Part shown: piece after piece, positions 650 to 16,543 of the stretch
How the letters are laid out: each line of letters starts with the position of its first letter
Numbering within the stretch: the stretch's first letter is position 1
From: Candidatus Nomurabacteria bacterium
GTDB lineage: Bacteria > Patescibacteriota > Minisyncoccia > Phycocordibacterales > UBA9973
Length of the DNA stretch: 64,000 nucleotides
Assembly (NCBI GenBank): GCA_943350045.1
Contig: CALQZW010000001.1
Span: 9,760-73,759 of the forward strand
Direction: 5' to 3'
Made by a program: the position numbers and the translations under genes
Notes under the pieces: model-generated
What the model was told of the DNA's origin: nothing
What the model saw: only the letters and a program-made list of their open reading frames with translations
Database searches by the model: none

Positions 650-1306
650 ATGAAAAATATGAACTTTACAAAGCGTGCAGCTATTGCTGCAACATGTGCG
701 CTATCTTTGGTAGCAATCATTACTCCATCACTCGCTTCAGCCGCATCACTTACTCGCCAGCTTCAGCTTGGAATGAAGGGTGCTGACGTTTCAACTCTCC
801 AGTCTTTCCTTGCCGTTGATAACACAATCTACCCACAGGGGCTCGTTACTGGATATTTCGGAGGACTAACAAAGTCTGCTGTTTCTAACTTTCAGTCACG
901 CAACAATCTTGCAACTGTAGGACGCGTTGGGCCACAGACACTCGCCGTTATAAACGCCCAGATGGCAGGAGGTGGAGCGGTCTTTGGAGATATTGATGCT
1001 GCAACAATCACAAATCTTTCAGTAAGTCGTTCAAATACATCAGCAAGTATTTTCTGGAACACATCTGAGGAGACACGTGGAGTTGTATATTACAGCACTT
1101 CACCATTAAATGAAACTGAATATGAAAACACTGTAACTGTTGTTGGTGCTATGACAGCAATGACAGATGGCGCATACCGCACATCTCAGAACATTATGCT
1201 CAGTAATCTTCAGTCAAACACAAACTACTACTACCTCGTTCATACAACTGATCAGGCTGGGAACGTAAGTGTTAGTGTTCCACTCATGTTTACTACAGCT
1301 TTCTAA
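650..1306 (+). CDS. secreted protein with a putative peptidoglycan-binding (PG_binding_1-like) domain and an FN3-like C-terminal domain
   Basis: There is a signal peptide (MKNMNFTKRAAIAATCALSLVAIITPSLASA). The block LQLGMKGADVSTLQSFLAVD...GYFGGLTKSAVSNFQ resembles a PG-binding repeat, and the C-terminal half is beta-rich. Confidence 0.55.
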   Translation: MKNMNFTKRAAIAATCALSLVAIITPSLASAASLTRQLQLGMKGADVSTLQSFLAVDNTIYPQGLVTGYFGGLTKSAVSNFQSRNNLATVGRVGPQTLAVINAQMAGGGAVFGDIDAATITNLSVSRSNTSASIFWNTSEETRGVVYYSTSPLNETEYENTVTVVGAMTAMTDGAYRTSQNIMLSNLQSNTNYYYLVHTTDQAGNVSVSVPLMFTTAF

Positions 1307-1315
1307 AGAAAGAAA

Positions 1316-1355
1316 CAAAAACCCCTTAGCGAGAAATCGCTAAGGGGTTTTTCTG
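1316..1355. terminator. bidirectional rho-independent terminator between convergent genes
   Basis: The sequence is aaaaaCCCCTTAGCGagaaatCGCTAAGGGGttttt: a 10-bp GC-rich stem flanked by an A-tract and a T-tract. Confidence 0.8.
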
Positions 1356-1366
1356 TACTCACCGAG

Positions 1367-2065
1367 CTACTTCATCAAGAAACGAAGTGTTGATACCAGA
1401 CGGATCTTCTTGAATTCTGGAGATCCTGGGTCTTTTTCTGTGATATCGAAGACTCCCTGATTTCCACGAGTAACACTTCCAACCGAGGCGTTCGCTGCGT
1501 CTGCAAAGCCCTGAGCCGTTGTCTGAGCGTTTTCAATCGCCTCACTGAGCATTTCTGGCTTAATGCTGTTTAGGTCTGAAATTTCAAATGAAATTGAGTT
1601 CTGGCTCAAAACCACTCCTTTCTTTACGAGAAGCAGTGTGTCGTTTGAACTTGCCTTCACAAGGTCGACTTTGTTTGTGTATACAGAAACCTGGTTTGTT
1701 GCGTTATATCGAAACGCAGCATCTTTGTATGTATCTTGGTAAATGTTTACTGGAGCGACATTAATCTCTGTATCTTCAAATCCTTTTTCTTTTAGGAATG
1801 TTTTGATTGTTCCAATGTTCTTTTCAATGTCTGCATACAAGCCATCGATGTTATTTGATTTAATTTCAAAACTCATTGACCAGATAGCAGTGTCTGCTTT
1901 TACAATTCGCTCTGAGAGACCTTTCACATCTACGTATGAACCTTGTTTAGAAAAGTTTTGAGCACCAAAATATATTGCGACTGAAAGGAGTAATGCGAAC
2001 ACAGAAATTGCGACTGCGATAACGGCGAACCTATTGTCTTTTAAGTTAGTTATATTCATATACAA
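1367..2065 (-). CDS. SIMPL-domain protein (DUF541, YggE-like periplasmic/membrane-anchored protein)
   Basis: It has an N-terminal TM anchor followed by a domain with the typical SIMPL layout (VDVKGLSERIVKADTAIWSMSFE ... AIENAQTTAQGFADAANASVGSV). Confidence 0.6.
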   Translation of the reverse strand: MYMNITNLKDNRFAVIAVAISVFALLLSVAIYFGAQNFSKQGSYVDVKGLSERIVKADTAIWSMSFEIKSNNIDGLYADIEKNIGTIKTFLKEKGFEDTEINVAPVNIYQDTYKDAAFRYNATNQVSVYTNKVDLVKASSNDTLLLVKKGVVLSQNSISFEISDLNSIKPEMLSEAIENAQTTAQGFADAANASVGSVTRGNQGVFDITEKDPGSPEFKKIRLVSTLRFLMK

Positions 2066-2128
2066 AGAGTATACTACAGATACGGCGGATTCGATCGCTT
2101 AGTATAGATAATATAGAGGAGTTACAGT

Positions 2129-2611
2129 ATGGAAAAGAATAAGGGGAATGTATGGGCTATCGCGGGTATCGTCATTGTGCTCGTCGCTGCGGTAATCTTT
2201 GCATTAACCAAACTGCCTGAAGCGCAGCCTGTGGTTGTAGAAGACACTACTTCACTACCAGAAGGAGAGACAGAGGTAGAATCGACATTGGATACTACTG
2301 GGACTCCAACAACAACGGCTCCTGTAACAATTTCATACGCCAATGCGTTGACTCAATACAAAGACCGTAGAATCCAGCTCGACACAGTGTGTCAGGCTCA
2401 CCCAAACACAATCACTTACAAAGACAACACAGGTATCATGATCGACAACCGATCGAGCAAGACTCGCACGGTGAAAATTGGAACTACGTTTACAATCAAG
2501 CCATACGGCTTCAAGATTTTTGTTCTCCCAAACATCACGACTGCACCACGCACTATTCTCGTAGATTGTGATACATCTCAGAACGTTGCGACTATTCTCG
2601 TTCAGGAGTAA
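2129..2611 (+). CDS. membrane-anchored hypothetical protein with a Thr/Pro-rich linker
   Basis: There is a single N-terminal TM helix (WAIAGIVIVLVAAVIFAL), then a low-complexity T/E-rich segment and a beta-rich C-terminal domain. Confidence 0.5.
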   Translation: MEKNKGNVWAIAGIVIVLVAAVIFALTKLPEAQPVVVEDTTSLPEGETEVESTLDTTGTPTTTAPVTISYANALTQYKDRRIQLDTVCQAHPNTITYKDNTGIMIDNRSSKTRTVKIGTTFTIKPYGFKIFVLPNITTAPRTILVDCDTSQNVATILVQE

Positions 2612-2695
2612 GGTATTCTCTATAGTTGACGAACCTATGGTTTGTAGTGTAATATGAATGTAACCTTCATTCAATAAAAACAAAAACACTTACAC

Positions 2696-2917
2696 ATGGA
2701 CAATCGAACTTTGGCACTTTACGAAAAGTGCAAGGAGAAGAATCCCGAGTTGTCAGAAAAAGACTTTCTGAAAGCACGAGGAGAAGCTTTGAACAAAGCC
2801 TCAACTGCTCCGCCTCCGCATATGGTATTTTTGCATGGCACTTTGACTCCTGTACTAAACGGAGAAGAACGCAAAGAGGTCTTCTTGGCCAACAAAGAAG
2901 ATGATGATGAAGATTAA
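2696..2917 (+). CDS. small hypothetical protein with an acidic C-terminus
   Basis: The 73-aa ORF is followed immediately by a strong terminator hairpin at 2940-2969. Confidence 0.45.
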   Translation: MDNRTLALYEKCKEKNPELSEKDFLKARGEALNKASTAPPPHMVFLHGTLTPVLNGEERKEVFLANKEDDDED

Positions 2918-2939
2918 GTAGTAACTTAGTTGATGATGA

Positions 2940-2969
2940 CTCCTAAACAGAAATGTTTAGGAGTTTTTA
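2940..2969. terminator. bidirectional rho-independent terminator
   Basis: The sequence is CTCCTAAACAgaaaTGTTTAGGAGttttt, and it overlaps the stop of the minus-strand gene 2967..3602. Confidence 0.75.
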
Positions 2970-3602
2970 TATTCTCTCAACTTTTTTCTCACCACCTATC
3001 ATGTATTCAATATTCTCATTATCTACCCAGCGCAAGAAAATATGTGTAGGATCGGTTTCAGTATTCGCATATGTTTGCAGTACAGTAAGGCTTTCTGTCT
3101 CTACTACAGTAAAGCCACACACGTTTTCAAAACAGCGTTCTTTATATACGAACGCCTCTCCATTTGGAGAAAAATCCCCGAACTCGTTACCGAGATAGTA
3201 GTTTGTAAGGATTGAAACTACTCCGGTATCTTTCGAGAAAAAACCGACAGCGGTGTCGGGTGAGAGCTCGTCTGTCTCAACTACAAAGCCCACGGATCTT
3301 CCGTCTGGAGAAAGCACGATGTCTGTAAATCGGGTATGTTGGATATATGTAGCAATGTCTGAACAGAACGCTCTTCGTGTAGTAGTGTTTCCGATATTAC
3401 TTTCGTCACACATTCCCGTGCTTGGGTCTCTAAAAAACTGCACGATAGTTGGATGTTCTATTTCAAGCAGTACAGATTCATTTTCAATAATACTCTTTTT
3501 GTCTGTAGATAGAGTTGGGGGAGTGCTTGGGGTTTTGAAATAGAGTGCTACGGCTACAACCGCCAAGCCGGCAAATACGGTCGCGAGGAATATTTTTTTC
3601 AT
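2967..3602 (-). CDS. secreted hypothetical protein
   Basis: The ORF-track frame 2967..3962 was trimmed to the internal start MKKIFLATVFAGLAVVAVALYF (ATG at 3602), which gives a signal peptide or TM anchor. The upstream extension would overlap a well-supported plus-strand gene. Confidence 0.55.
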   Translation of the reverse strand: MKKIFLATVFAGLAVVAVALYFKTPSTPPTLSTDKKSIIENESVLLEIEHPTIVQFFRDPSTGMCDESNIGNTTTRRAFCSDIATYIQHTRFTDIVLSPDGRSVGFVVETDELSPDTAVGFFSKDTGVVSILTNYYLGNEFGDFSPNGEAFVYKERCFENVCGFTVVETESLTVLQTYANTETDPTHIFLRWVDNENIEYMIGGEKKVERI

Positions 3603-3651
3603 AGGTATAGTATATATAATAATTGAGGTATTTGTTACACTATACGCACGT

Positions 3652-3882
3652 ATGGCACATTCACTTCCAGCTGATTTGCAAAAATCCCTTGCATCTAATT
3701 CCAAGGCACTTGCCGCTTGGCACGATATTACTGCACTTGCCCGCAATGAATGGATTTGCTGGGTTACGTCCGCTAAATTGCCCGAGACAAGAGTTCGTAG
3801 GATACAGAGAGTCTGTGAGGACTTACAAAAAGGTAAGCGCCGGCCATGTTGCTGGGCGGGGTGCGTGCATAGAAAAAAGTAA
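3652..3882 (+). CDS. YdeI/OmpD-associated (OmdA) family small protein
   Basis: The C-terminal motif WICWVTSAKLPETRVRRIQRVCEDL is characteristic of this family (memory-based). Confidence 0.55.
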   Translation: MAHSLPADLQKSLASNSKALAAWHDITALARNEWICWVTSAKLPETRVRRIQRVCEDLQKGKRRPCCWAGCVHRKK

Positions 3883-3950
3883 TAGCTATATTTTAATACC
3901 ACATTGATTTTCTTTGTAAAATATGAATAATGAACGTAAACGTATAACAT

Positions 3951-4451
3951 ATGAAAACACAAATCATGGGGATAACTGAAGAGTTATTGCTCGAAATTTT
4001 AAGTATTGGTACTAAGGTTTTTGAAAGCTTCGGAGATGTTGATGATCAAATTCCAGCCAGTATAGAAGCCTATGATAAGCATATGGCTTTGCATTCCAAG
4101 TCATTTATTTGTAAGTTGGATGATTCAGGGGAGCTTGTGGGTTGGGCGGTCGCAGTGCCCACGTCTAAGTTGCTCGCCCAAAAATTCCTCGATGGTGCGA
4201 TTACCGAAAAGGAATTATTTGATGAAACTGAGCCGAGTGACCGCTATGAAGCACTCTATTTGTGCTTCGCGTTTGTTGTAGAAAAAGAACGAAAAAAGCA
4301 CCACGCGCGAGACATGTTCCTAGAGATATTTGAGAGTGTCCCGCTCTCAGATGATGCCACTATTTTTATCTGGCCCGTAAGCGACGACGGGAGAAAGTTT
4401 ACGAAAAAATTCGCCCTCGAAATTGATTTACCTATTCACATTCGTGAATAG
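3951..4451 (+). CDS. hypothetical protein
   Basis: This is a 166-aa ORF with plausible composition and no motif I recognise. Confidence 0.4.
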   Translation: MKTQIMGITEELLLEILSIGTKVFESFGDVDDQIPASIEAYDKHMALHSKSFICKLDDSGELVGWAVAVPTSKLLAQKFLDGAITEKELFDETEPSDRYEALYLCFAFVVEKERKKHHARDMFLEIFESVPLSDDATIFIWPVSDDGRKFTKKFALEIDLPIHIRE

Positions 4452-4492
4452 GTGAAAAAAAGTTCAACCAGTTTAGTAATGAGCTGGTTTTT

Positions 4493-4723
4493 TTATGCTT
4501 TCTTTAGAAACTCTGTACGAAGTACGAGTCCTTTCATTCCGTCGACGTTGCATTCGATGAGTTCTTCGTCATCAGTCAGGCGAATATTTTTTGCCTTTGT
4601 TCCACGCTTGAGGGTGACTGATGTTCCTTTTACTTTCAAATCTTTCACAAGCATGACGGTATCGCCGTTTGCGAGTACTGTGCCGTGTGCGTCTTTTGTG
4701 ATGATTATATCTTCTGATTCCAT
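4493..4723 (-). CDS. PhnA-like C-terminal domain protein (YjdC/PhnA family)
   Basis: The 76-aa sequence ...VLANGDTVMLVKDLKVKGTSVTLKRGTKAKNIRLTDDEELIECNVDGMKGLVLRTEFLKKA matches the conserved PhnA C-terminal beta domain. Confidence 0.6.
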   Translation of the reverse strand: MESEDIIITKDAHGTVLANGDTVMLVKDLKVKGTSVTLKRGTKAKNIRLTDDEELIECNVDGMKGLVLRTEFLKKA

Positions 4724-4744
4724 AGGATTGCATCATAGCATAGT

Positions 4745-5257
4745 TTGCGTGGTACCATGGAATATATGAGTAAAAAACACCTGTATTGGTTTGTTGGAAT
4801 TTTCGCAGTCGTCGCGCTTGCGTGGGTGCTTTTCGGATATTTTGGCGTGCAGTATCTGTTTACCGAAACCGTTGTTTCTGAAGAAGTTACGATGGAAGCA
4901 AAAACCACTGTGGCAGATGGAGTATTTGTTCAAGGGGATAGTACATATTCAATTTCTGGAGCAGTGAGTGTTATCGAAGACTCTGAAACTCGCATGCTTG
5001 CTCTGACAGATTTTACTGTAACGAACGGTCCAGACCTTTTTGTATACATTGTTTCTTCTGAGAGTGATGAAAATCGGAGTGTTAAAAATGCAGTGAGTGA
5101 GGGCAAGTTTGTAAACCTCGGACCACTCAAGGGAAATATTGGAAATCAAACGTATCAAATTCCAGAAGGGGTAGTTACTGATGAAAACACAGTCGTAAGC
5201 ATTTGGTGTAAACGATTTTCAAGAAACTTTGGTGCGTCAAAAATTGTTTTGAAATAG
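4745..5257 (+). CDS. DM13-domain membrane-anchored protein
   Basis: There is an N-terminal TM helix. The block FTVTNGPDLFVYIV ... and the C-terminal IWCKRF resemble DM13 (memory-based). The start could also be the ATG at 4766. Confidence 0.45.
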   Translation: MRGTMEYMSKKHLYWFVGIFAVVALAWVLFGYFGVQYLFTETVVSEEVTMEAKTTVADGVFVQGDSTYSISGAVSVIEDSETRMLALTDFTVTNGPDLFVYIVSSESDENRSVKNAVSEGKFVNLGPLKGNIGNQTYQIPEGVVTDENTVVSIWCKRFSRNFGASKIVLK

Positions 5258-5306
5258 TGTGTCTGTCTCTCGATTAGAGCTATATTGCATGTATAGTAAA
5301 GAAAAC

Positions 5307-5675
5307 CTACCGAAGTAGGTTTATATTCTCAATTACTGACAGCGGAATCGTGAGTGTCATCCCGCTTGGTCGGCTTGGACATGTCCAGATTTGTATGGAT
5401 GTGTCATCGTACGCAGTCGCGTCTCCTCGTATTCGTTCTTTCTTGATTACAGTAACATCATCATTTGTTACTGTTTGCAACTCACACAAAAGATGAATTT
5501 TCTTATCAGCCCCAAGGAGGTGGGTATCATACTCATCTGGGTAATTTTTTCGGAGGTATCCATGTGCCTCATTTTTGAACACCAACCAGAGATTTAGTTT
5601 TTCTTCTTGTATGTAGCGAAGAATTATTACACGCTCTTTATCTGTCGCGTTTCGAAAGGTTACATTTTCTCTCAT
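5307..5675 (-). CDS. hypothetical protein
   Basis: This is a 122-aa ORF with no recognisable motif. Confidence 0.4.
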   Translation of the reverse strand: MRENVTFRNATDKERVIILRYIQEEKLNLWLVFKNEAHGYLRKNYPDEYDTHLLGADKKIHLLCELQTVTNDDVTVIKKERIRGDATAYDDTSIQIWTCPSRPSGMTLTIPLSVIENINLLR

Positions 5676-5797
5676 GTAGTTTAAGTTTATTGAATGAACA
5701 TATTATGAGAGATAGTATCGTACAAAAGAAGAGATGTAAATGAATAAAAAAAAGACTGGCAAATGGCGCCAGTCTTTAGAAGGGTTTAGTCCTCGTG

Positions 5798-6691
5798 TTA
5801 TAGCGAAGAAATATGTCCAATCATCCTTTCTTGAATCCATTCTCGTATTATTTTTTGAGAAGAATCGAGTAGGCTCTGAATCGTTTTTCTTTCTTGGTTC
5901 GAAAACATCGTTTCGTACACTGTCCTCTCTTGTCTGCCAGCTGGGCTGTAAGGAAACATTATTCTGTATAGTTTACCTCTGACAATATCTTCTATGTTTC
6001 GAAGAGAGAAGTCTTCTATCGGAGATAGCATTACAGAAAGCTCCTGGAATCTTTCATCAACCACGAGATTCTCAATATCTGCACATCGTGTAGATGTAAG
6101 CATTTTCTCGAATACATTTTTAATGTATTTCGCGTGAATTGGCGTAATTTCCTTCTGTGCATGAAGTTCAGTTACTTCTCTCAATGTCTTGCGTCCAAAG
6201 TTTCGGAACGCAAGAAGTTCTTCAGTACTATAAAGTAGTACTTCGTAGTTGTATACTATTTTCTCCGCACTAAAGCAATTGTATGCTCTGACTGAATAGT
6301 CGTAAGCGGTATTAATTCTACCGCAGAGAAAACCTCTCACCTCTGGGCTGATTTCTATGGAAAGAATCGTCTTTTCTCCTCTTAAAATGGCGAGTGCTCT
6401 GTTGAAGCATTCAATAATCAGCGCGCTTACATTTTCAGCTCTCACTCCAGGCATCCTGCTCTGTATTTCTTCTTTTGTTATAAGTACTTGCTCGTCAGGG
6501 GAGTTTAATGTATCTCCTAGGCGGAATGTCTTACTTTTTGTGTTGACAATAATCGTGCATTTGTCCATGTTTATTTGTTTTTTGTGAATGAATGTATCTT
6601 GGTGGATACTACAATATTCTGCTATTTTGTCAACAAATGCTTCTTGTAGAATCGCTATTTTCTGTTTCGTCATTTTTGACTCGTCAGACAA
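5798..6691 (-). CDS. hypothetical protein containing an RNA polymerase alpha-subunit CTD-like helix-hairpin-helix motif
   Basis: The internal segment VRAYNCFSAEKIVYNYEVLLYSTEELLAFRNFGRKTLREVTEL parallels the RpoA alpha-CTD consensus VRSANCLK..I.Y..DL....E.ELLK..NLGKKSL.EI. Confidence 0.5.
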   Translation of the reverse strand: MSDESKMTKQKIAILQEAFVDKIAEYCSIHQDTFIHKKQINMDKCTIIVNTKSKTFRLGDTLNSPDEQVLITKEEIQSRMPGVRAENVSALIIECFNRALAILRGEKTILSIEISPEVRGFLCGRINTAYDYSVRAYNCFSAEKIVYNYEVLLYSTEELLAFRNFGRKTLREVTELHAQKEITPIHAKYIKNVFEKMLTSTRCADIENLVVDERFQELSVMLSPIEDFSLRNIEDIVRGKLYRIMFPYSPAGRQERTVYETMFSNQERKTIQSLLDSSQKIIREWIQERMIGHISSL

Positions 6692-6751
6692 GAATACACA
6701 TTCCTTTATGGTCCCGGATTGTTAGCTGTCCATGAGCGGATTGCTGCAGAA

Positions 6752-6784
6752 AGATAAAAACGGAGTCTGTTGAGGACTCCGTTT
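6752..6784 (-). terminator. rho-independent terminator for the 6801..8081 gene
   Basis: The sequence is AACGGAGTCtgttgagGACTCCGTT; the minus-strand reading is followed by a T-tract. Confidence 0.6.
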
Positions 6785-6800
6785 CTTGTTTCATAAATAA

Positions 6801-8081
6801 TTAGTTTATTCGAATATAGTAGTACACTGAGACGTTCTTTGGGCGGGTTTCTTCGCCACCGGTTGAATTAGTGGTATAAGTAAACGGACCCCATGCATAT
6901 TCTGACTTTGAACCCTTTCCGCTAACATTCTTTTTTTCACCAGACTTATAGGTGTGAGAATGACTCTTAATTTCATCACTTTGATATTGACCACGCTTCA
7001 TGTTTTGAGGATTCGCTTGACCAGATGACACTACTGCCTGTTCTTGTATGTCGAACTGGTTTAGTCCTCGAAGAAATACTCCGCGCAGATCTGGTGCGTT
7101 TGCCCCAATAGATCCAGCCCATAGTTCATGGTATTTCGATCCCATAAGCAAGCGACCGTCGCACGGTGCCCACTTACTTTTTTTAGGTGACCAGACCCCG
7201 CTACGAGCATTATTTTTTGTAAGTTTTGAAAAAGCATCAAAGTCAAGCATGGAAGCGATTACAGTCCCTATTGGAAGATTACTCCCGTTTGCATTTTCCT
7301 CGCTTTCTACTCTTTTTACTATAGACAAACCATTACTGGTATTTAGGGCAATAAGGAACTCCTCACCAGGAATTCTTGTTGCTGTAAAAGCAATTCCATC
7401 TGCTAGTGGAGTACCTTTTCGTAGGCGTCCTTTCAGGAGCTCTTGCTTGTCTATTTCACTAATTCCCAAAAGGTCAACTGATGAAATGAGAGGTTTCCTG
7501 TCATTGCTTGAGACTGCCTTGTATCTGATGGTTACTTCAATGGTTTTTTCGCCATTAGCCATGATTGAGAGGCCAAAATTTTCCTTAATTGCAAGACAAT
7601 TATTGAATGCCTCCGCTAGCTCGATATCAAGAGTTGAACGTGATATGGTTGAAAAAGTTTCGAGTCTTACTTCCACGGAAGTAGCTTTCTGTATTTTTTC
7701 TTGAAACTGTTTCAATTTGTCTTCACTTGCACCAGCATCTAAGCCAATAGGAATACCATCTGTTACGATTGATATGCCCCCGTTCCACTTTCCATTTTTG
7801 TAGTCGCTCTTGAATTTTTCTGACAAAAAATAGCTTCGACTATCTGAAAAAAAAGATAGACCGTTTTGGTCTACGTAATTGTTTCTCAATCCATCGGAGA
7901 GTAGTGTGAGGCATGGGTCAAGTTCTCCATAGCTCGACTTCATCCCGACGGACGTAAATTTCTTTATCTGTGTGACTTTGGGTGTCACCAATCTTTGTTG
8001 TGACTGCCCAAAAGTGGCAGTGCTGCCAATAGACATTACTACGAGGCTCAATAGAGCTGACTTTCTTAATAGTCTCTTCAT
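6801..8081 (-). CDS. secreted protein with a C-terminal phage tail-collar (MdpB-like) domain
   Basis: There is a signal peptide (MKRLLRKSALLSLVVMSIGSTATFG). The C-terminus has WAPCDGRLLMGSKYHELWAGSIGANAPDLRGVFLRG, then SHSHTY, then GGEETRPKNVSVYYYIRIN. These match the collar-domain consensus W.CDG..L....Y..L...IG...PDLRG.F.RG ... MPSHTH ... GG..HNNMPPYL.LNYII. Confidence 0.6.
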   Translation of the reverse strand: MKRLLRKSALLSLVVMSIGSTATFGQSQQRLVTPKVTQIKKFTSVGMKSSYGELDPCLTLLSDGLRNNYVDQNGLSFFSDSRSYFLSEKFKSDYKNGKWNGGISIVTDGIPIGLDAGASEDKLKQFQEKIQKATSVEVRLETFSTISRSTLDIELAEAFNNCLAIKENFGLSIMANGEKTIEVTIRYKAVSSNDRKPLISSVDLLGISEIDKQELLKGRLRKGTPLADGIAFTATRIPGEEFLIALNTSNGLSIVKRVESEENANGSNLPIGTVIASMLDFDAFSKLTKNNARSGVWSPKKSKWAPCDGRLLMGSKYHELWAGSIGANAPDLRGVFLRGLNQFDIQEQAVVSSGQANPQNMKRGQYQSDEIKSHSHTYKSGEKKNVSGKGSKSEYAWGPFTYTTNSTGGEETRPKNVSVYYYIRIN

Positions 8082-8177
8082 TTTTTTGATTTTTAAAGTA
8101 TGAATCGGAATTAATTCAGCTACACTAAAGCATTTATTTTAAAAAATGTCAATATATAATCTGCCTTACTGAATGTT

Positions 8178-8678
8178 ATGTACTCACAAAAAAACAGTTT
8201 ATACTATCTACCTATGGAAAAAATACACACATCAATTGTAATTAATGCTCCGCGCGAAAAGGTATGGAACACCATGCTCGAAGACGCGACATACCGACAG
8301 TGGACAAGTGCCTTTCACCCAGGCTCGTATTACAAAGGGACTCTTGCGAAAGGTGAAAAAATACTCTTTCTCGGACCAGATGCCGAAGGGGAGATGGGAA
8401 TGGTTAGTCGTGTAGCAGATATTCGTCCGTTCGAATTCATTTCATTTGAACATCTTGGAATTGTAAAAAACGGAGTTGAAGACACGGAGAGTCCGGAAGC
8501 CACATTATGGGGCTCTGCGTTTGAGAACTATACGTTCAAGGATGTCGATGGAGGAACAGAGGTGGTGATTGATCAGGATATTATCTCGCAGTATAAAGAT
8601 GAGTTCGAGAAAATGTGGGCGAGCGCACTGGGGCTTTTGAAGCAGTTGGCGGAGAATAAAGATGAACTTATTCGGTAG
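8178..8678 (+). CDS. SRPBCC-superfamily protein (AHSA1/polyketide cyclase-like)
   Basis: HTSIVINAPREKVWNTMLEDATYRQWTSAF is the typical N-terminus of the Aha1/SRPBCC fold. The real start may be MEKIHTS at 8214. Confidence 0.55.
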   Translation: MYSQKNSLYYLPMEKIHTSIVINAPREKVWNTMLEDATYRQWTSAFHPGSYYKGTLAKGEKILFLGPDAEGEMGMVSRVADIRPFEFISFEHLGIVKNGVEDTESPEATLWGSAFENYTFKDVDGGTEVVIDQDIISQYKDEFEKMWASALGLLKQLAENKDELIR

Positions 8679-8732
8679 TTCTATGCTCATTTTGAAGTAT
8701 AATTAGCACATTAGCAGTCAATAAAGAAAACT

Positions 8733-9083
8733 ATGACAACACTAGAAATAGCAAACAGATTGGTAGAACTTTGTCGCGCAAATAATTTTGAAGGAGCATG
8801 GGATGAGCTTTTTGCGCCAGGCTGGGAGACTCACGAGCTTGCAGAGTGGGGTGGAGGAGTGCGACACGGCATAGAAGAAGCAACAGCTGCGTCAGACGAG
8901 TGGAAGTCAGATATTGCAGAGATGCATGAAATGACTATCAGTGATCCGATTGTTGCCGATGATAGTTTTGCTTGCGTTATGTCTATGGATATTACGAGCA
9001 AGACTCGTGGTAGAAATAAAGAATCTGAAATCTGTGTGTATAAAATCAAAGACGGAAAGATCGTTAGTGAAAGTTTTTTTTAA
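8733..9083 (+). CDS. SnoaL-like/NTF2-fold protein
   Basis: The size and the hydrophobic pattern of the N-terminal helix (ANRLVELCRANNFEGAWDELFAPGW) fit an NTF2-like fold. A terminator follows at 9101-9130. Confidence 0.4.
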   Translation: MTTLEIANRLVELCRANNFEGAWDELFAPGWETHELAEWGGGVRHGIEEATAASDEWKSDIAEMHEMTISDPIVADDSFACVMSMDITSKTRGRNKESEICVYKIKDGKIVSESFF

Positions 9084-9100
9084 GATAATGAGTAATAAAT

Positions 9101-9130
9101 AAAACCACCTTCCTCGGGTGGTTTTTTAGT
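9101..9130 (+). terminator. rho-independent terminator
   Basis: The sequence is AACCACCttcctcgGGTGGTTtttt. Confidence 0.75.
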
Positions 9131-9222
9131 ATCTATTTTAGGATACATAATCCGTACGCTGGATTACTCTTGTAAAACAAAATAAAAGGCTGACAAAATA
9201 TGCCAGCCTTAATGCACTAATT

Positions 9223-9405
9223 TTAAATACTGCTACTTTGCCATTGAGGCCATGTGCCGTCGGCAAGCATTCCTCCAACACAGCGATACCATCCCGTATA
9301 TCCGGTTGCGTTGTATTCGTATTCGTACGAGCCAATTCTTTGCCAAGAAGTCATATTATTTTTTTTCGAATGAATAAATTTTTGCGAGGTTATTTCTGAA
9401 GCCAT
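9223..9405 (-). CDS. small hypothetical protein (60 aa, Trp/Tyr-rich)
   Basis: A downstream hairpin (AAGGCTGacaaaatatgCCAGCCTT, 9186-9213) suggests a real transcript end. Coding status is uncertain. Confidence 0.3.
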   Translation of the reverse strand: MASEITSQKFIHSKKNNMTSWQRIGSYEYEYNATGYTGWYRCVGGMLADGTWPQWQSSSI

Positions 9406-9683
9406 GTTTGCATCGTCCAGCCATTTTTAGAACTTATGACAAAAGCGCCTTCTGGCTTGGTGGAAATATTTTCTGCATAGAATACGCGCATAGACTTATA
9501 ACTTCTTGAAGAGGTAATAAAGTCTGTTTTTACTGTCTCTGCTTCCACGCCTATTTTTTCAGAAAAAATCTTCGTCTGCTCGGTGAGCATCTTAATGATA
9601 TTTTCCACAAAAAATGATGTATCGGTGTAGCCCGCAACCCAGAATGCGATTTTCTCGCTCTCGGAAAAAAATAAGTCTTTCAT
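9390..9683 (-). CDS. hypothetical protein
   Basis: This is a 97-aa ORF. Confidence 0.4.
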   Translation of the reverse strand: MKDLFFSESEKIAFWVAGYTDTSFFVENIIKMLTEQTKIFSEKIGVEAETVKTDFITSSRSYKSMRVFYAENISTKPEGAFVISSKNGWTMQTWLQK

Positions 9684-9853
9684 AATTATTCAGTTTTTGT
9701 TTAAGAGTGAGCGCAAAGGGCCGATCTGTGACCCGCTTCGCTCACCCCACAAAAACTTATGTTAAATAAGCTATTAATTATTATAATAGCATAATATATA
9801 TATTTAGTCAAGTATCTAAAACTGGCGATATCATACACCGCATACACTTTTTG

Positions 9854-9883
9854 CTCCGAACTTGGGACGATGTTCGAACGGAG
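9854..9883. repeat. intergenic hairpin repeat, copy 1 (CTCCGAACTTGGGAYGATRTTCG core)
   Basis: The sequence is CTCCGAACTTGGGACGATGTTCGAACGGAG. Similar copies lie at 10425-10450 and 11767-11792. Confidence 0.6.
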
Positions 9884-9936
9884 ATAGCAAAAGACCAACT
9901 GTAGAAGTGGGTCTTTAAATTTCATTTAGTCTCTTG

Positions 9937-10392
9937 CTATTCAGCAATTATTATTCTTTTGCTCTGTATCTGACAACCAGCCGAATGAATCGAAAGACTG
10001 AACGCTCGAGAACCACTCACGTCTTTCAGTTCCTGACCAATCGTGGCAGATTCATAGAATTCCTTTGATACTGGAATTTCAAAACTTGCGTTAGCTGTTG
10101 TGAACTCCAGTCCTCTTCGAATTGAAACTTTTAATCCGAGAATGTAAGCAATCTTATTACCGCCTACCTCTGCCTCCTGAAGTTGCACTTTATTCGCAAT
10201 TTCAAGATTCTGAGCATTTAAGTATTCATTTTTTTCGTTAAGTTTTTGCAAGAGGGTTTGCTTGCTAGTAATTTCCGAATCAAGCATTTCTCGTTGACTA
10301 TTGAGTCTTGCCACATCTTCCGAGGTTGTATTGCAAGAAAAAAGCGAGAGAATTCCTAAACACGTAATACTATAGAAAAAACTTTTTTTCAT
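9937..10392 (-). CDS. lipoprotein with a coiled-coil region
   Basis: The N-terminus MKKSFFYSITCLGILSLFSC carries a lipobox LFSC. A Q/E/L-rich heptad segment follows. Confidence 0.55.
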   Translation of the reverse strand: MKKSFFYSITCLGILSLFSCNTTSEDVARLNSQREMLDSEITSKQTLLQKLNEKNEYLNAQNLEIANKVQLQEAEVGGNKIAYILGLKVSIRRGLEFTTANASFEIPVSKEFYESATIGQELKDVSGSRAFSLSIHSAGCQIQSKRIIIAE

Positions 10393-10424
10393 AAGAACAT
10401 TTTTTTTGAAAGTTAGAAAATTTA

Positions 10425-10450
10425 TTTCGAACTTGGGATGATATTCGAAA
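10425..10450. repeat. intergenic hairpin repeat, copy 2
   Basis: The sequence is TTTCGAACTTGGGATGATATTCGAAA. Confidence 0.55.
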
Positions 10451-10513
10451 CACTACAGTGAATAGAAAATAAAAAGATCAGCGTGTATTGCTGATCTTTA
10501 GTTTTAAACCTGC

Positions 10514-11059
10514 TTAATTTGCATACTTATAGAAATAATCAAGAAAATTACCTTCGTTGCAAGTGATGATATTTTTTATATCCTCTACCTTATTCTCCAA
10601 GATTTCTTCACAACTGAGACCCCTGCAAATCTTCCTTACGAGCTCTTCGATTACAAATGAATCAATTTCGCTCGAGATAAATTTCTCGTCGGCTCCAGGG
10701 TTTTCTTGTGTTATCTTTGGAACCACATTTTCTTTTAGAAGGGAATGTTGTATAAAAAATTCTTTTGATATAACAAAATTTGGATTTTTATTCTGCACTC
10801 TGAATCTTACTTCACGAGCGGCGATTCCAAATAGTCTTTCTTGGGACACAGTGGATAGCCTGCTAATATTTCTCGTTACAACTACGTAATAATCCTCTTC
10901 TGTTGAGTAACATGCGTAGGTTGTATCATCTCCCCATTTTTTGTCGTTAAATGCAATAGTATGCACGTGGGTTGTGTCGTTGCTAAATACTATTTGATCA
11001 AGAACGGTTATTCTTATAACCAATTCTTCTGCGATTGCTTGTATTTCTGTTGTGTCCAT
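10514..11059 (-). CDS. hypothetical protein
   Basis: The 181-aa ORF has a terminator hairpin (AAAGATCAGCgtgtattGCTGATCTTT, 10472-10498) just downstream on the minus strand. Confidence 0.5.
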   Translation of the reverse strand: MDTTEIQAIAEELVIRITVLDQIVFSNDTTHVHTIAFNDKKWGDDTTYACYSTEEDYYVVVTRNISRLSTVSQERLFGIAAREVRFRVQNKNPNFVISKEFFIQHSLLKENVVPKITQENPGADEKFISSEIDSFVIEELVRKICRGLSCEEILENKVEDIKNIITCNEGNFLDYFYKYAN

Positions 11060-11067
11060 TTATTTAG

Positions 11068-11116
11068 TTTTTGTGGTTACTAGAGAAACCTCCAGTTGCT
11101 CTAGTAACCACAAAAA
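11068..11116. promoter_or_regulatory. 18-bp perfect inverted repeat (very stable hairpin) immediately upstream of the 10514..11059 start codon
   Basis: The sequence is GTTTTTGTGGTTACTAGAG-aaacctccagttg-CTCTAGTAACCACAAAAA. Neither flank has a U-tract, so this is not a classical terminator. Confidence 0.5.
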
Positions 11117-11155
11117 GGTGTCAAAAAACGCATTTGGATAGATACTACAACAATA

Positions 11156-11710
11156 TTAAGTTTTGTCAAACTTTTGCTCTTGAGATTTTAAGCTATGTAA
11201 AAAATTCCGCTCGTCTTTTATGCTTTTAATAATTATCACCTTCTTTGTTTCTTTGTAGGGTAATATTTTTGCATACTGGTCGGCGGTTGGAGAGTTTAGG
11301 GCAAATTGTATGTCTTTCCATGTGAAAGGATATTTTTGTTTGTTATTACCTCCCATGTCCGGACGGACTTTATTGTAATACTTGAAATATCGTTTTGTCT
11401 GTCTCCAGAGTGTAAGCCATAGGGGTAGGTCATAAAAAACAATAGTATCGGCTTCAGCTATACGCATATCAAAAGTTTTAGACCGATGCATGCTTCCGTC
11501 AATTATCCAACGAGGTTCTTGGAGGATTTTTGAAACAGCTTCTATACCTTCCGCTTGAGAGGCGAATACCTGATTATCTTTCCAAAAAATCTTATCTAAG
11601 TGGTAAACAGGAATATTAAGAATCTTACCTATTTTATTGGAGAGGGTTGTCTTTCCTGATGCTGTGCCCCCGCAAATAGTTATTTTATTCATGTGGAGTA
11701 AGTATACCAA
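11156..11710 (-). CDS. P-loop NTPase, adenylate-kinase-like (topology-modulation-protein family)
   Basis: The Walker A motif ITICGGTASGKTTLS lies near the N-terminus. The real start is probably MNKITIC at 11692. Confidence 0.6.
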   Translation of the reverse strand: MVYLLHMNKITICGGTASGKTTLSNKIGKILNIPVYHLDKIFWKDNQVFASQAEGIEAVSKILQEPRWIIDGSMHRSKTFDMRIAEADTIVFYDLPLWLTLWRQTKRYFKYYNKVRPDMGGNNKQKYPFTWKDIQFALNSPTADQYAKILPYKETKKVIIIKSIKDERNFLHSLKSQEQKFDKT

Positions 11711-11732
11711 AAATCCTGAAACCTACTGATGT

Positions 11733-11762
11733 AAAAAACAGCGCTGTGTAGGCTGTTTTTTG
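11733..11762. terminator. bidirectional hairpin/terminator
   Basis: The sequence is aaaaAACAGCgctgtgtagGCTGTTttttt. Confidence 0.5.
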
Positions 11763-11766
11763 AGTG

Positions 11767-11792
11767 CTCCGAACTTGGGATGATGTTCGGAG
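11767..11792. repeat. intergenic hairpin repeat, copy 3
   Basis: The sequence is CTCCGAACTTGGGATGATGTTCGGAG: a perfect 8-bp stem with a 10-nt loop. Confidence 0.6.
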
Positions 11793-11864
11793 TGCTATTC
11801 TGGGCAAATAAAAAAGGTTAACCAAAGAAGGGTAACCTTTTCATGAAATTTATTCTATTCAAAT

Positions 11865-12053
11865 CTATTCACAGCTTTCGCGCGCGAGGTCTCTTGCTTT
11901 GTTTCTGCATTCCGCACTGTCACAACAAGCAATTGCTGCGTTTTTGTTTTTATTTTCACACGTGGCTTTTGATAAAGCTGTGTTTGGGCAAAATGTACAC
12001 TTTTCCTTTTTTTCGTTGGTGTGTGAGATAAAACTCACTTTGATTTTTCCCAT
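11865..12053 (-). CDS. small Cys-rich hypothetical protein (62 aa)
   Basis: Seven Cys in 62 aa (..CTFCPNTALSKATCENKNKNAAIACCDSAECRNKARDLARESCE). It lies between tRNA-Asn and a terminator. Coding status is unverified. Confidence 0.35.
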   Translation of the reverse strand: MGKIKVSFISHTNEKKEKCTFCPNTALSKATCENKNKNAAIACCDSAECRNKARDLARESCE

Positions 12054-12307: not shown

Positions 12308-12526
12308 ATGTATATTCGAGTCCATGCAGTGGCCGGCAGTCGGCGGGAGAGCGTAAAACAGGAGAGTCCTGGAGTGTATGCTGTAACAGTCCGTGAGCCT
12401 GCAGAGCGCAACCTGGCGAACACGCGCATTCGAGAACTGCTTGCCGGGGAGCTGAAAGTTCCTGTTGGTGCCGTGCGGATTATAAACGGTCATCATGGTC
12501 CAACAAAACTATTTTCCATTCTGTAG
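12308..12526 (+). CDS. DUF167 (YggU/UPF0235) family protein
   Basis: IRVHAVAGSRRESV...GELKVPVGAVRIINGHHGPTKLF matches the YggU pattern (V.P.A.....GELKV....P..GKAN..L...LA....V....V.I..G..S..K). Confidence 0.6.
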   Translation: MYIRVHAVAGSRRESVKQESPGVYAVTVREPAERNLANTRIRELLAGELKVPVGAVRIINGHHGPTKLFSIL

Positions 12527-12539
12527 AAGTTCGCCTGAG

Positions 12540-13385
12540 TTAGTTTTTCTGAAAGTCAGCAAATGACATTTCCTTTTTTCCTTCTGGGAGAACTTTTTCA
12601 ATTACAAATTTCTCATCGGCGAAATGTGCCTGCGTGATGATGACGCGAAGTGGCTTGCTGTCCTTTTCGGTGAAGAAGAAGGCGCGAGGCCACTCTTTGT
12701 ATGCGCGGTACTTTCTGTGCGCGAGCGCCTGGTCTCCGTGTATGTCTATTTCCGCATCAGCTTTCTGAATTTTTCCGCAGTGGGTCGCGAGTGTTTCGTC
12801 CTGTTCGCGAGGAAAAATTTCTCCTCGAATTATTTTCGGCAGTGTTGCGACTAAAAGTTGTGCTCCGATTGCCGTGAGGCGAGCGCGGAGAAGAGGAGTG
12901 GTTTCTTCTGTGCCGATATGTACCACCTCTTCGGCAATCACTGGCCCAGTATCGAGCTTTTTTCGCATTATTTGAATTGATACACCTGTCTCTGTATCTC
13001 CGGCTAAAATTGCAGCTTCTGTGGGAGACGCTCCGCGATATTTTGGGAGGAGGGAATAGTGCACATTTATAGTCTGGTGCTTTGGAAGGGAAATGAAGCG
13101 CTCGGGAATGATTGATCCGTATGCCACAACGACGCTCAGGTCGAGATTCATTTTTTCCAGTTCGGCAAACGTCTCGTCGGTGAGTTTTTCTGTTTGAAGC
13201 ACTGGTATCCCATGTTGCTCGGCCCACACTTTTGTTGCTGGGGCAGTGAGTGTCATATGGCGCCCTACTGGACGGTCTGGATTAGTTACAATAACTACAG
13301 GAAGCATCCCAGAGGCCTTAAGGGCTTCTAGGTAGCTGATTGTGAGCTCTGGAGTACCCCAGAATGCTATACGTGGTGTAGACAT
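12540..13385 (-). CDS. fmt: methionyl-tRNA formyltransferase
   Basis: The N-terminus IAFWGTPE...VVTNPDRPVGR, the motif HYSLLPKYRGASP and the C-terminal domain all fit Fmt. It is operonic with def. Confidence 0.9.
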   Translation of the reverse strand: MSTPRIAFWGTPELTISYLEALKASGMLPVVIVTNPDRPVGRHMTLTAPATKVWAEQHGIPVLQTEKLTDETFAELEKMNLDLSVVVAYGSIIPERFISLPKHQTINVHYSLLPKYRGASPTEAAILAGDTETGVSIQIMRKKLDTGPVIAEEVVHIGTEETTPLLRARLTAIGAQLLVATLPKIIRGEIFPREQDETLATHCGKIQKADAEIDIHGDQALAHRKYRAYKEWPRAFFFTEKDSKPLRVIITQAHFADEKFVIEKVLPEGKKEMSFADFQKN

Positions 13386-13388
13386 AGC

Positions 13389-13943
13389 TTATTCAATATC
13401 TTCTGGTACTTGCCCTGGAGCAACATTACGAGCGTTGTCTATGAACAAGATGCCGTTTAGGTGGTCTGTCTCGTGCTGGAAAATGTGAGCAAGTAGTCCT
13501 CCGGCACCACGGGTAAATGACTGGCCGGTTTCGTCGAGCGCAGTAATTGTTGCGTTCGTAGAGCGTTGAACTTCGCCCCACAGCGGGCGAACGGAAAGAC
13601 AGCCTTCGTGCATCCATTTCTTTGTTTTAGAAAGTTTTGTGATGACTGGATTTATGAACACAACGTCATCATGTGTCGGTTCTTCTCCTTCGGGAATACC
13701 AACTCCACGATGGAAGCGAGAATCAAAGATGCGACCAGAGACGACAAAGATGCGCATTGACGCACCGATTTGCGGAGCGGCAATGGCTACTCCGTCGGCC
13801 TGTGCTTTGAGTGCAGTCTTCATGTCACGAATGACTTTCTTTACTTTTGCACTTGCTATTTCGGTAGGAGAAAGCTCCTTCGCGATTGCGCGAAGGACTG
13901 GGTCTCCATTTTGAACTATTGGTATACGTGCTGGGCGTGTCAT
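13389..13943 (-). CDS. def: peptide deformylase
   Basis: The motifs GIAAPQIG, EGCLS and HETDHLNG are present. Confidence 0.9.
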   Translation of the reverse strand: MTRPARIPIVQNGDPVLRAIAKELSPTEIASAKVKKVIRDMKTALKAQADGVAIAAPQIGASMRIFVVSGRIFDSRFHRGVGIPEGEEPTHDDVVFINPVITKLSKTKKWMHEGCLSVRPLWGEVQRSTNATITALDETGQSFTRGAGGLLAHIFQHETDHLNGILFIDNARNVAPGQVPEDIE

Positions 13944-15257
13944 TTACTTCAATGATTTCATGTAGTCTGCAAGGTCCTTGTGTTTGATTATCTCCTGAGA
14001 ACGAGTGTTCATGTTGCGAACGATGACTGTTCCGTCGAGTGCTTCTTTCTGTCCGAAGATGATTGTGTACGGTGCACCAGATTTCTCTGCCATACCAAGC
14101 TGTGCTCCGAGAGAGTCTTTTGAGAGCGCTTGAATCATTGGAATGTGTCCCTTGCGGAGAATTTCAATTACGTTGAGACTCTTTAGTTTTGCTTCAAAGC
14201 CAAGCTGGATGAAGTACACTTTTGGTTTCTTCATGATACGTGGAGTGTGCTTGCTGTACCATGGCATCATAAGGAGACGATCTACTCCGATTGCTGCTCC
14301 CATTGCAGAAACATCTTTCTTTGAACCGAGCTGTTTTGCGAGATAGTCGTAGCGACCTCCTCCGGCGATTGCCATTGGTGCAGAGTCTTCACCCATATCA
14401 ACGACAACTTCAAATACAGTGCGGGAATAATAGGAGAGTCCGCGTACGAGGTTTTTGTTTATAGTATACGAAACCTTCATTTCCTCGAGGTGTTCAAGTA
14501 CTTCTTTGAAGTGCTTCTTACAGCCAGGGCAGAGGAAAGAAACAGACTCTGGTGCTCCTGCGTTTATCTCAATTGTCTTCTCTTCTTTTGAATCAAGAAT
14601 GCGAAGTGGGTTTGTCTTGAGGCGTTCACGATCGAGCGCAGGGAGTGCATTGAGGTGCTTTTTGTAATATGTAGTGAGTTCACGAACATATCCTCCCCGA
14701 CATTCTTTACAGCCGATTGAGTTAATGTCTACAGAAATCGCCGGTGCTCCACTTTCAGTAATGATTGTAGTGAGTGTCTTGATTACGAGAGCATCTACGA
14801 TACTTTTTTCACTACCGAGTGCGTCGAGATCAAACTGGTAAAACTGGCGCCAGCGTCCTTTCTGTGGGTTGTCGTGGCGGAATGTTGGTCCGTATTGATA
14901 GAAGAGCAGTGGCTGTGGCTGAGCGTTCATTCCGTTTTCGATATATGAACGCATGAGTGACGCAGTGTGTTCTGGGCGAAGCGCAAGGTGGTCTCCGCCT
15001 TTTGTGCGAAGGGTATACATTTCCTTGTCGATGATGTCTGTTCCTTCTCCGATTCCTGAAGTGAAGACGTCTTCGTGTTCGAGCATTGGAGTTTCAATTG
15101 GCTTGAAGCCGTAGTACATAGCTACCTCTTGCGCCTTCTCGAAGAATCCCTGAAAGAGATAGTACTCGTCGCCCATGATGTCGCGCATTCCTTTTGGTGC
15201 TCCGAGTTCACGAACTTTTTTTGCTTTCGCGGGTGCTTTTACTTTTGGTGTAGACAT
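13944..15257 (-). CDS. hisS: histidine--tRNA ligase
   Basis: The HisRS motifs GMRD, FRHDNPQKGRWRQFYQ and GGGRYD are present. The stop abuts the def start. Confidence 0.9.
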   Translation of the reverse strand: MSTPKVKAPAKAKKVRELGAPKGMRDIMGDEYYLFQGFFEKAQEVAMYYGFKPIETPMLEHEDVFTSGIGEGTDIIDKEMYTLRTKGGDHLALRPEHTASLMRSYIENGMNAQPQPLLFYQYGPTFRHDNPQKGRWRQFYQFDLDALGSEKSIVDALVIKTLTTIITESGAPAISVDINSIGCKECRGGYVRELTTYYKKHLNALPALDRERLKTNPLRILDSKEEKTIEINAGAPESVSFLCPGCKKHFKEVLEHLEEMKVSYTINKNLVRGLSYYSRTVFEVVVDMGEDSAPMAIAGGGRYDYLAKQLGSKKDVSAMGAAIGVDRLLMMPWYSKHTPRIMKKPKVYFIQLGFEAKLKSLNVIEILRKGHIPMIQALSKDSLGAQLGMAEKSGAPYTIIFGQKEALDGTVIVRNMNTRSQEIIKHKDLADYMKSLK

Positions 15258-15286
15258 ATATGTGAATACTAAGTGGTGGTAATGTT

Positions 15287-16541: not shown

Positions 16542-16543
16542 TC

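Follow-up and report, generated by a model that had tools for sequence, protein, structure and literature searches.

A gene in the 64,000-nt stretch of contig CALQZW010000001.1 that was analysed here (the window) encoded a predicted protein of 426 amino acids (aa), whose C-terminal module was homologous to the collar and head of phage short tail fibres and whose N-terminal part, behind a predicted signal peptide, was a two-cysteine module (N-module) that had not been annotated previously. Coordinates of the gene and its parts are given in Table 1. Our favoured reading, to which we attach a probability of roughly 0.5, is that the protein is exported, that its C-terminal module forms a metal-centred trimer like that of T4 gp12, that a hypervariable insert in this module binds a surface ligand of another cell, and that the N-module acts as the constant partner.

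The C-terminal collar/head module

Three lines of comparison agreed independently on the C-terminal module, so that its homology to phage collar/short-tail-fibre heads is solid and is not a matter of chance or composition, whereas Pfam alone would have made a weak case. PHROG tail and tail-collar-fibre families (327, 523, 910, 1858, and 2097) matched residues ~251–425 with E values from 4.3e-11 to 3e-8, those with E values up to 1e-9 spanning residues ~257–425. A profile of 30 family sequences matched the structures of T4 gp12 (1OCY, 3e-6; 9CUY, 5e-6; 1PDI, 1e-5; 5IV5, 7e-5) over ~115 positions, a span that covered the collar PDLRG block, the HxH motif, and the C-terminal strand. Foldseek against BFVD (E <= 1e-3) returned matches that included entries named "Phage tail collar domain containing protein", with E values of 6e-6 and 2e-5.

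The module carried the motif blocks WAPCDGR (residues 304–310), PDLRGVFLRG (330–339), SHSHT (373–377), and GGEETRPKNVSVYYYIRIN (408–426). In the family profile, the C-terminal strand ETRPKNVSVYYYIRIN, of the ETRPxN..Y.I type, was aligned with gp12 ETRPWNISLNYIIKV, and ETRPKNVSVYYYIRI was likewise placed opposite gp12 ETRPWNISLNYIIKV. Residues 267–426 could also be aligned end to end with stand-alone cellular collar proteins of ~170–200 aa from many phyla (30% to 41% identity), and in 80 genome loci fetched with module patterns the module was located at the protein C-terminus or no more than a few dozen residues from it, either alone or behind varied N-termini. Tandem arrays of collar-only or collar-ended genes were observed elsewhere, with six such genes in a Mucilaginibacter bin (L044, nt 3–3751) and four in a Limisphaerales bin (L061, nt 1399–8543); tandem collar genes were also present in loci L045, L049, L052, L084, and L087.

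The two histidines of the putative metal-binding motif were kept in nearly all of the 120 homologs aligned (H374 in 118, H376 in 117). Their counterparts in gp12, the HKH histidines of the three chains, reportedly coordinate zinc on the axis of an interdigitated trimer, as described by Thomassen and colleagues in 2003. In the same 120 homologs, residues 377–408 were the most variable part of the protein, with a mean column entropy of 3.36 bits and a length ranging from 29 to 62 aa, and were flanked by the two most conserved blocks (1.28 and 0.75 bits). A conserved HxH motif adjoined by a hypervariable insert is the pattern that would be expected of a trimerization scaffold with a specificity loop.

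An earlier sequence-only reading of this gene had assigned a collar domain to the C-terminus, and this was borne out by the PHROG, gp12 profile, and BFVD matches; its designation of the domain as MdpB-like was upheld by the end-to-end alignment of the C-terminal module with stand-alone collar proteins of ~170–190 aa. The motif blocks that it quoted were all present, but two spacings needed amendment, W..CDGR replacing W.CDGR and L....IG replacing L...IG, and the module, then put at ~130 aa, extended over ~160 aa (residues 266–426).

The N-terminal two-cysteine module and its relatives

As judged from profile searches, the N-module is an independent, widespread, and previously un-annotated module that recombines with many tails. 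The profile used (A3) was an alignment of the isolated N-domain, in which the window protein was one of the build sequences, and matched that protein over residues 55–260 at 1.6e-65. An exhaustive hidden Markov model search with A3 recovered 804 representatives of 50%-identity clusters at E <= 1e-3, 232 of them at <= 1e-10. The collar was absent from 113 of 134 newly found representatives, and the regions following the N-module fell into at least 53 BLAST-distinct groups, including 38 singletons. The few tails recognized by Pfam were modules of binding type, namely BACON, viral BACON_2, PKD, Laminin_G_3, and hemopexin. Since it is joined to many binding-type tails, the N-module would be the invariant end, whether a business or an anchoring one.

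No family for the N-module was found in Pfam or NCBIfam, either with the window protein or with 100 non-collar members that were also scanned. Profile searches of PDB sequences with A3 and with a more diverse alignment (A4) gave matches at chance level only (YojF, 0.036; B3 domain, 0.15), and nothing in PHROGs matched before residue ~251, which left the N-module without a PHROG match. Foldseek against the PDB with both AlphaFold2 (AF2) models gave no match at E <= 1e-3, the structures returned being generic sandwiches of the Ig, FnIII, MG, and type IX secretion system (T9SS) C-terminal-domain types. Gasdermin, MACPF, Ntn-hydrolase, and thioester-domain identities were considered and dropped, as judged from the signature motifs of these families, which were absent, and from the predicted secondary structure, which did not fit.

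Conservation within the module was centred on its two cysteines. C57 and C162 were conserved in 96% to 100% of 229 domains, in signal-bearing and signal-less branches alike; the first cysteine was always close to the mature N-terminus, at most a few residues away, and the second followed at a median distance of 104 residues. The simplest reading is probably a disulfide stapling C57 to C162. Other conserved positions were G170, P197, T248, R236, L61, P111, F90, and S87. Across the 229 domains the conserved residues were Cys, Gly, Pro, Thr, Leu, Phe, and Arg, and none of Asp, Glu, His, and Lys was invariant, which speaks against enzymatic activity and in favour of a unit that is structural, binds a partner, or acts on membranes.

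The signal region showed a basic n-region, a hydrophobic h-region, and a small-residue cleavage site, a pattern that was also seen in most homologs. It was read as a classical Sec-type signal peptide, and the protein is thus predicted to be exported. Gln was found at most 8 residues before the N-domain in 154 of 171 exported-type family members. A lipoprotein identity was dropped because no lipobox cysteine was seen in the signal region, and a T9SS cargo identity was dropped because the protein ends in a collar and its host probably lies outside Bacteroidota. In the AF2 monomer model, built with 120 homologs and having a mean predicted local distance difference test (pLDDT) score of 78, residues 17–52 scored below 50, and the gap fraction over residues 1–54 was 0.62 in the 120 homologs. 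The wall-anchoring motifs LPXTG, SLH, and LysM were neither seen in the sequence nor matched in Pfam.

The N-terminal part had been described in the sequence-only reading as secreted, beta-rich, and unrelated to the collar. Secretion agrees with the n-h-c organization of the predicted signal peptide, and the lack of relationship to the collar with the failure of this part to match anything annotated in Pfam, NCBIfam, or the PDB; this part is not simply beta-rich, however, as AF2 gave a signal peptide, a linker, a mostly helical alpha+beta sub-domain, and an Ig-like beta-sandwich. That reading would have been abandoned if a collar match were lacking and the N-domain belonged to an enzyme family; the collar match was present, and no conventional enzyme family was found for the N-domain.

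A total of 339 full-length homologs were found at E <= 1e-3, sharing 31% to 51% identity. Most of those with an organism name were from Bacteroidota, whereas the window probably belongs to Patescibacteria (see below). The copy of Alteromonas portus (Gammaproteobacteria; L003) was 59% identical to that of Flavobacterium sediminilitoris, closer than most Bacteroidota copies are to one another (L003 versus L004/L005), which indicates transfer between phyla. A Paceibacterota bin contained a 214-aa ORF (open reading frame) with a TTG start (L012, nt 8001–8774) that was the closest species-level relative (43% identical) and covered residues 220–426 only; similarity upstream of this ORF extended to residue ~176 and no N-module was present, so it is probably a truncated or decaying copy. 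No relevant literature was found on tail-collar proteins as secreted, Bacteroidetes, bacteriocin, or MdpB proteins.

Transcription unit, genomic context and host genome

The gene has a terminator of its own after the stop codon and a divergent SRPBCC gene upstream, and these signals mark it as its own, monocistronic transcription unit. Boxes resembling -10 elements were observed upstream, namely CATACT at nt 8102–8097 and, in a promoter scan, a weak -35/-10 pair at nt 8179–8151; their assignment as promoters is tentative. Shine-Dalgarno motifs were near-absent across the window (upstream of 60 predicted genes), and a -10-like box of the form TA[TCG]A[CA]T, often TATACT, started 8 to 23 nt before the start codon in 15 of these 60 genes, compared with 2.9% of random 30-mers. 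The closeness of these boxes to the starts suggests that many mRNAs of the window are leaderless or have very short leaders.

The GC content of the gene (0.414) and that of its third codon positions (GC3, 0.359) were both inside the range of the window genes, and its leader, without a Shine-Dalgarno motif, was of a style common to other genes. The gene is therefore not an obvious recent insertion, and recent horizontal insertion was dropped as an explanation. Within the gene, an antisense ORF of 218 aa (nt 7048–7704, + strand) showed BLAST similarity to antisense ORFs in L001, L010, L011, and L015; it was rejected as a second gene because its conservation sits opposite homologous genes and is a shadow of the sense frame.

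Table 1 Features of the collar gene and its product in the window
Feature	Residues	Position (nt)	Strand	Description and basis
Complete gene, 426 codons plus stop	1–426	6801..8081	-	ATG start, stop codon 6801–6803; ORF list
Upstream intergenic region, 96 nt		8082..8177	-	A-rich leader without Shine-Dalgarno motif; divergent from SRPBCC gene
Predicted signal peptide	1–25	8007..8081	-	MKRLLRK / SALLSLVVMSIG / STATFG; predicted signal peptidase I cut before Q26; read from sequence
Linker	26–54	7920..8006	-	Predicted disordered; poorly conserved
Sub-domain A of N-module	55–166	7584..7919	-	Mostly helical alpha+beta; Gly-rich hairpin 103–114; C57 and C162; AF2 model
Sub-domain B of N-module	167–262	7296..7583	-	Ig-like beta-sandwich; pLDDT 84–97 over 171–260, mostly > 90; AF2 model
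Phage tail-fibre collar plus gp12-like head module	266–426	6804..7286	-	PHROG, gp12 profile, BFVD, stand-alone collar alignment
Putative metal-binding HxH (H374-S-H376)	374–376	6954..6962	-	Opposite HKH of T4 gp12 in profile alignment
Hypervariable head insert	377–408	6858..6953	-	Candidate ligand-contacting tip
Conserved C-terminal block (GEETRPKNVSVYYYIRIN)	409–426	6804..6857	-	Protein end, no further domain; lowest entropy, 0.75 bits
Intrinsic terminator		6756..6786	-	Directly after stop; 12-bp stem with 5 G-C pairs, then TTTTT; terminator scan and sequence

Genes neighbouring the collar gene encoded a DM13 protein, small hypothetical proteins, a 297-aa protein with a segment resembling the C-terminal domain of the RNA polymerase alpha subunit (RNAP-alpha-CTD), an SRPBCC/AHSA1 protein, and a SnoaL_5 protein; those farther away in the window included fmt, def, hisS, lepB, pth, an S1-domain gene, gyrA, infB, clpB, alr, parB, relA/spoT, topA, dprA, serS, dus, dnaX, and femAB. 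No phage, tailocin, contractile-injection, or type VI secretion system genes were found among the ORFs of the 64-kb window scanned with Pfam, and no second copy of the N-module or of the collar module was present in the window.

Comparison was extended to 19 loci that were independent of one another and encoded full-length homologs, in metagenome bins as well as in complete genomes. Across these loci, no conserved neighbours of immunity, lysis, secretion, contractile-injection, or phage type were found; what they shared was limited to the synteny of three Pedobacter genomes and to a regulator of GerE type in three loci. In all, a regulator of the GerE/NarL type was near four or five loci (L003, L008, L014, L092), but belongs to a family too common to count. 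Two of the 19 loci lay beside transposases. One homolog, of Chryseobacterium sp. PET-29 (L006, nt 1–21,182), was located in an island of restriction/defence type with genes for a DNA methylase, an NgoFVII-like restriction enzyme, Vsr, an AAA_21 ATPase, a phospholipase D (PLD) nuclease, KwaA, and two Mrr_cat proteins; the other loci differ, and this was not counted as an association. In PADLOC-DB 2.0, no match was found for the window protein or its two downstream neighbours.

The view taken in the sequence-only reading that no phage genes are nearby was thus confirmed, for the window ORFs scanned with Pfam and for the 19 homolog loci, and its view that a prophage remnant is the less likely explanation was supported by the full-length conservation, the terminator, and this lack of phage genes. 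Its suggestion that homologs might stand next to secretion or contractile-injection loci was followed up at the 19 loci, and none did.

Several other genes of the window may be recorded. Just downstream of the collar gene, the 297-aa protein (nt 5798–6691, - strand) contained only a PF03118 RNAP-alpha-CTD-like segment (residues 132–175, E = 3e-11), and its gene had a terminator of its own (nt 5777–5751). Two surface proteins were predicted: one (nt 24,698–26,059, + strand) with fn3 and purple-acid-phosphatase-N-like domains and a C-terminal segment resembling pilins of type IV secretion systems (T4SS; PF18895), and another (nt 650–1306, + strand) with PG_binding_1 and a purple-acid-phosphatase-N-like domain. 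The region from nt 1 to 12,000, with many hypothetical genes and the collar gene among them, had a GC content of 0.35 to 0.44, compared with 0.45 to 0.49 in the adjoining fmt-def-hisS-lepB-pth block (nt 12,500–17,000), and the first ~12 kb of the window may be a variable region of the chromosome.

As for the host, GyrA of the window (nt 20,331–22,808, + strand) was 74% to 89% identical to proteins of metagenome bins, and among the matches listed, all 12 that carried an organism name were from Ca. Pacebacteria, Paceibacterota, Nomurabacteria, Minisyncoccia, or "Patescibacteria group". Patescibacteria are also in keeping with the gene content of the window, which includes femAB, compact housekeeping genes, and a membrane protein resembling T4SS pilins, and which lacks Shine-Dalgarno motifs.

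Comparison with known systems and possible roles

The closest structural relative of the C-terminal module is T4 gp12 (PDB 1OCY/1H6W; PF07484 and PF14928), with which it shares the PDLRG.F.RG block, an HxH opposite HKH, the terminal ETRPxN..Y.I strand, and a position at the extreme C-terminus. Unlike gp12, the window protein lacks an N-terminal baseplate-binding region and a beta-helical shaft, having instead a predicted signal peptide and an unrelated globular module; in its family the head insert is far shorter (median 41 aa), neither Pfam model reaches its threshold, and the gene is not in a phage. Tail fibres of phages and tailocins differ from it further in that it has neither a particle-attachment region, no PHROG matching before residue ~251, nor tail or baseplate genes among the window ORFs scanned or as conserved neighbours in the 19 loci, and for these reasons it is not a structural member of the phage-fibre class. 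The stand-alone collar proteins annotated as "phage tail collar domain" or "microcystin-dependent protein MdpB" (COG4675) are, like it, chromosomal, outside phage context, and uncharacterised, but they contain nothing beyond the collar/head and are often arrayed in tandem, whereas the window protein is a single-copy fusion of 426 aa with a 210-aa N-module and a predicted signal peptide.

Two cellular systems invite comparison on other grounds. Lectin-like bacteriocins (LlpA) offer a purely functional analogy: they are encoded by solitary genes without known immunity partners, are patchily distributed, and include versions that have a signal peptide and others that lack one. LlpA, a tandem MMBL lectin, depends for its action on recognizing a surface glycan. 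It has no relationship in sequence or fold with the window protein, and killing by the family of the latter is hypothetical. The other is a fusion of the shufflon protein PilV with a tail collar (UCP91044.1), in which reuse of the collar for cell-surface recognition has been proposed (PMC9881135). It resembles the window protein in being a cellular protein with a C-terminal collar behind an unrelated N-terminal module, but it has a pilin N-module on a conjugative pilus, pilus gene neighbours, and programmed inversion (PMC9881135), none of which applies to the window protein.

According to the favoured reading, the C-terminal module would be a cellular copy of a phage short-tail-fibre tip, composed of a collar and a gp12-type head. 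If T4 gp12 is a guide, its three chains would intertwine around a metal ion held by the HxH motif, and the insert between this motif and the terminal ETRPKN...YYIRIN strand would form an exposed surface that recognizes a ligand, most probably a surface glycan. The N-module (residues 55–262) would be a constant unit of non-enzymatic appearance, with the collar head as one of many interchangeable targeting ends. The gene would be transcribed alone and would need no phage, secretion-system, or immunity partner. Patescibacteria have been described as monoderm (PMC11665869), and a Sec substrate of a monoderm Patescibacterium cell would end up outside, where it could bind a host or neighbouring cell. 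The protein may in this sense be a surface-exposed binding or effector protein, as the sequence-only reading had supposed.

A number of observations weigh against this account. The search with Pfam Collar (PF07484) proposed in the sequence-only reading did return a match (residues 302–336, E = 1.4e-3), but its 19.0 bits fell below the gathering threshold of 24 bits; 17 of the 30 family members also matched this model weakly (best E = 5e-4), and the low score is probably explained by ~24 aa inserted after the GTVIAS block and ahead of WAPCDGR. PF14928, which models receptor binding by gp12, scored 12.6 bits, below its threshold of 23.8 bits (E = 0.17, residues 406–424). The head region had pLDDT values of 63 to 94 in the monomer AF2 model, which is moderate confidence, and Foldseek with that model did not recover gp12 from the PDB. 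Placement of the window in Patescibacteria is probable, drawn as it is from one marker and gene content.

Export is not a property of the whole family, and extracellular action is not guaranteed by family membership. Proteins with the N-module and collar that start with MxxC and lack a signal peptide were found in Bacteroidota, namely in Segetibacter (L010) and in Chryseobacterium (L019, L020), as well as on a metagenome contig of 348 kb (L091), and signal-less N-module proteins were also found in the Bacillus cereus group and Brevibacillus (Firmicutes). In-frame stops lay 1 to 13 codons upstream of these starts, and L090 and L091 had an AGGAG ribosome-binding site at the right distance; the signal-less starts are therefore real. 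The cysteines are invariant in the signal-less forms too, yet a disulfide would not form in the cytoplasm. The simplest reconciliation would be that the signal-less forms also act outside the cell, after release.

For the role of the N-module, an anchor on the producer was ranked ahead of a payload against competitors, an anti-phage function, and a dead remnant. As an anchor, which we regard as unlikely, it would sit on the envelope of an episymbiont with the tail-fibre head pointing outward to the host cell, so that the protein would serve as an attachment adhesin with the topology of a phage fibre (N-terminal anchor, C-terminal receptor binder). The window is probably of monoderm Patescibacteria, and in one species of Saccharibacteria viability requires, among other functions, type IV pili, a predicted T4SS, and several surface-associated proteins that are predicted adhesins (PMC11665869). 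The combination of a constant N-module and many different binding tails fits an anchor with a swappable tip, the tip is hypervariable, and the truncated relative L012 comes from another Paceibacterota bin. Most named homologs, however, are from free-living Bacteroidota and not from episymbionts, and the signal-less versions are not anchored in the envelope by the Sec route. Nor does the protein carry any of the three wall-anchoring motifs sought in the sequence and in Pfam, and no connection was found with the genes, of type IV pili or T4SS, that have been implicated in how epibionts attach.

The constant module with variable targeting tails would also fit a bacteriocin-like antagonist, released by export or, if signal-less, by lysis, in which the head targets a receptor of a competitor and the N-module serves as a payload that kills or blocks without being an enzyme, by the logic of lectin-like bacteriocins. 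The solitary gene, its patchy distribution, its location in variable regions, and its transfer across phyla (Alteromonas/Flavobacterium, 59%) agree with such a role, as does the coexistence of forms with and without a signal peptide, which is likewise known for bacteriocins of the LlpA type; the invariance of the two cysteines even in signal-less forms suggests an oxidising extracellular setting. We nevertheless hold this role to be unlikely, in that none of the 19 loci had an adjoining immunity or lysis gene, the N-module was not similar to any known toxin or pore-former in the Pfam, NCBIfam, PDB profile, and Foldseek searches, and in most bacteriocins and polymorphic toxins it is the C-terminal part that is toxic.

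A defensive role, with the phage-derived head masking the phage receptor of its own cell, or co-assembling with fibre subunits of an incoming phage and so poisoning virion assembly, would draw on the phage origin of the domain, the existence of cytoplasmic versions, the location of L006 between restriction-modification, Vsr, PLD-nuclease, KwaA, and Mrr genes, and the PLD or methyltransferase neighbours of L001 and L008. It is very improbable, with no PADLOC match, most loci lying outside defence islands, and SRPBCC, SnoaL, DM13, and RNAP-alpha-CTD-like genes as the neighbours in the window. A decaying tail-fibre remnant of a prophage or tailocin, devoid of present function, could be imagined from the phage type of the C-terminal module and the occurrence of the truncated copy L012, but is nearly excluded: the frame is intact and conserved at full length across the 339 homologs, the gene has its own terminator, no phage genes occurred among the scanned window ORFs or in the 19 loci, and the N-module is absent from PHROGs.

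To our knowledge, cellular tail-collar proteins, common as they are in genomes, are essentially uncharacterised, and the molecules with which Patescibacteria recognize their hosts are largely unknown. Here the cellular collar domain is one of the interchangeable tips of a large family (804 clusters) that lacks annotation and is absent from Pfam, NCBIfam, and the PDB. A wider proposal, which we consider distinctly unlikely, is that ultra-small, episymbiotic Patescibacteria and other bacteria recognize the cells they live on or compete with by means of a domesticated phage tip on a two-cysteine carrier module. This carrier would define a large family of modular, cell-targeting proteins with C-terminal ends of at least 50 kinds, exchanged much as phages exchange the tips of their fibres. 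Should the arrangement of carrier and tip prove wrong, there would still be a gain in annotation, in that the gene can be recorded as something other than a prophage remnant, with a product that ends in a gp12-like collar/head. If it is right, the carrier would be a new domain to define, residues 377–408 would be the specificity-determining loop, and the protein would be a concrete candidate for the contact of a Patescibacterium with other cells.

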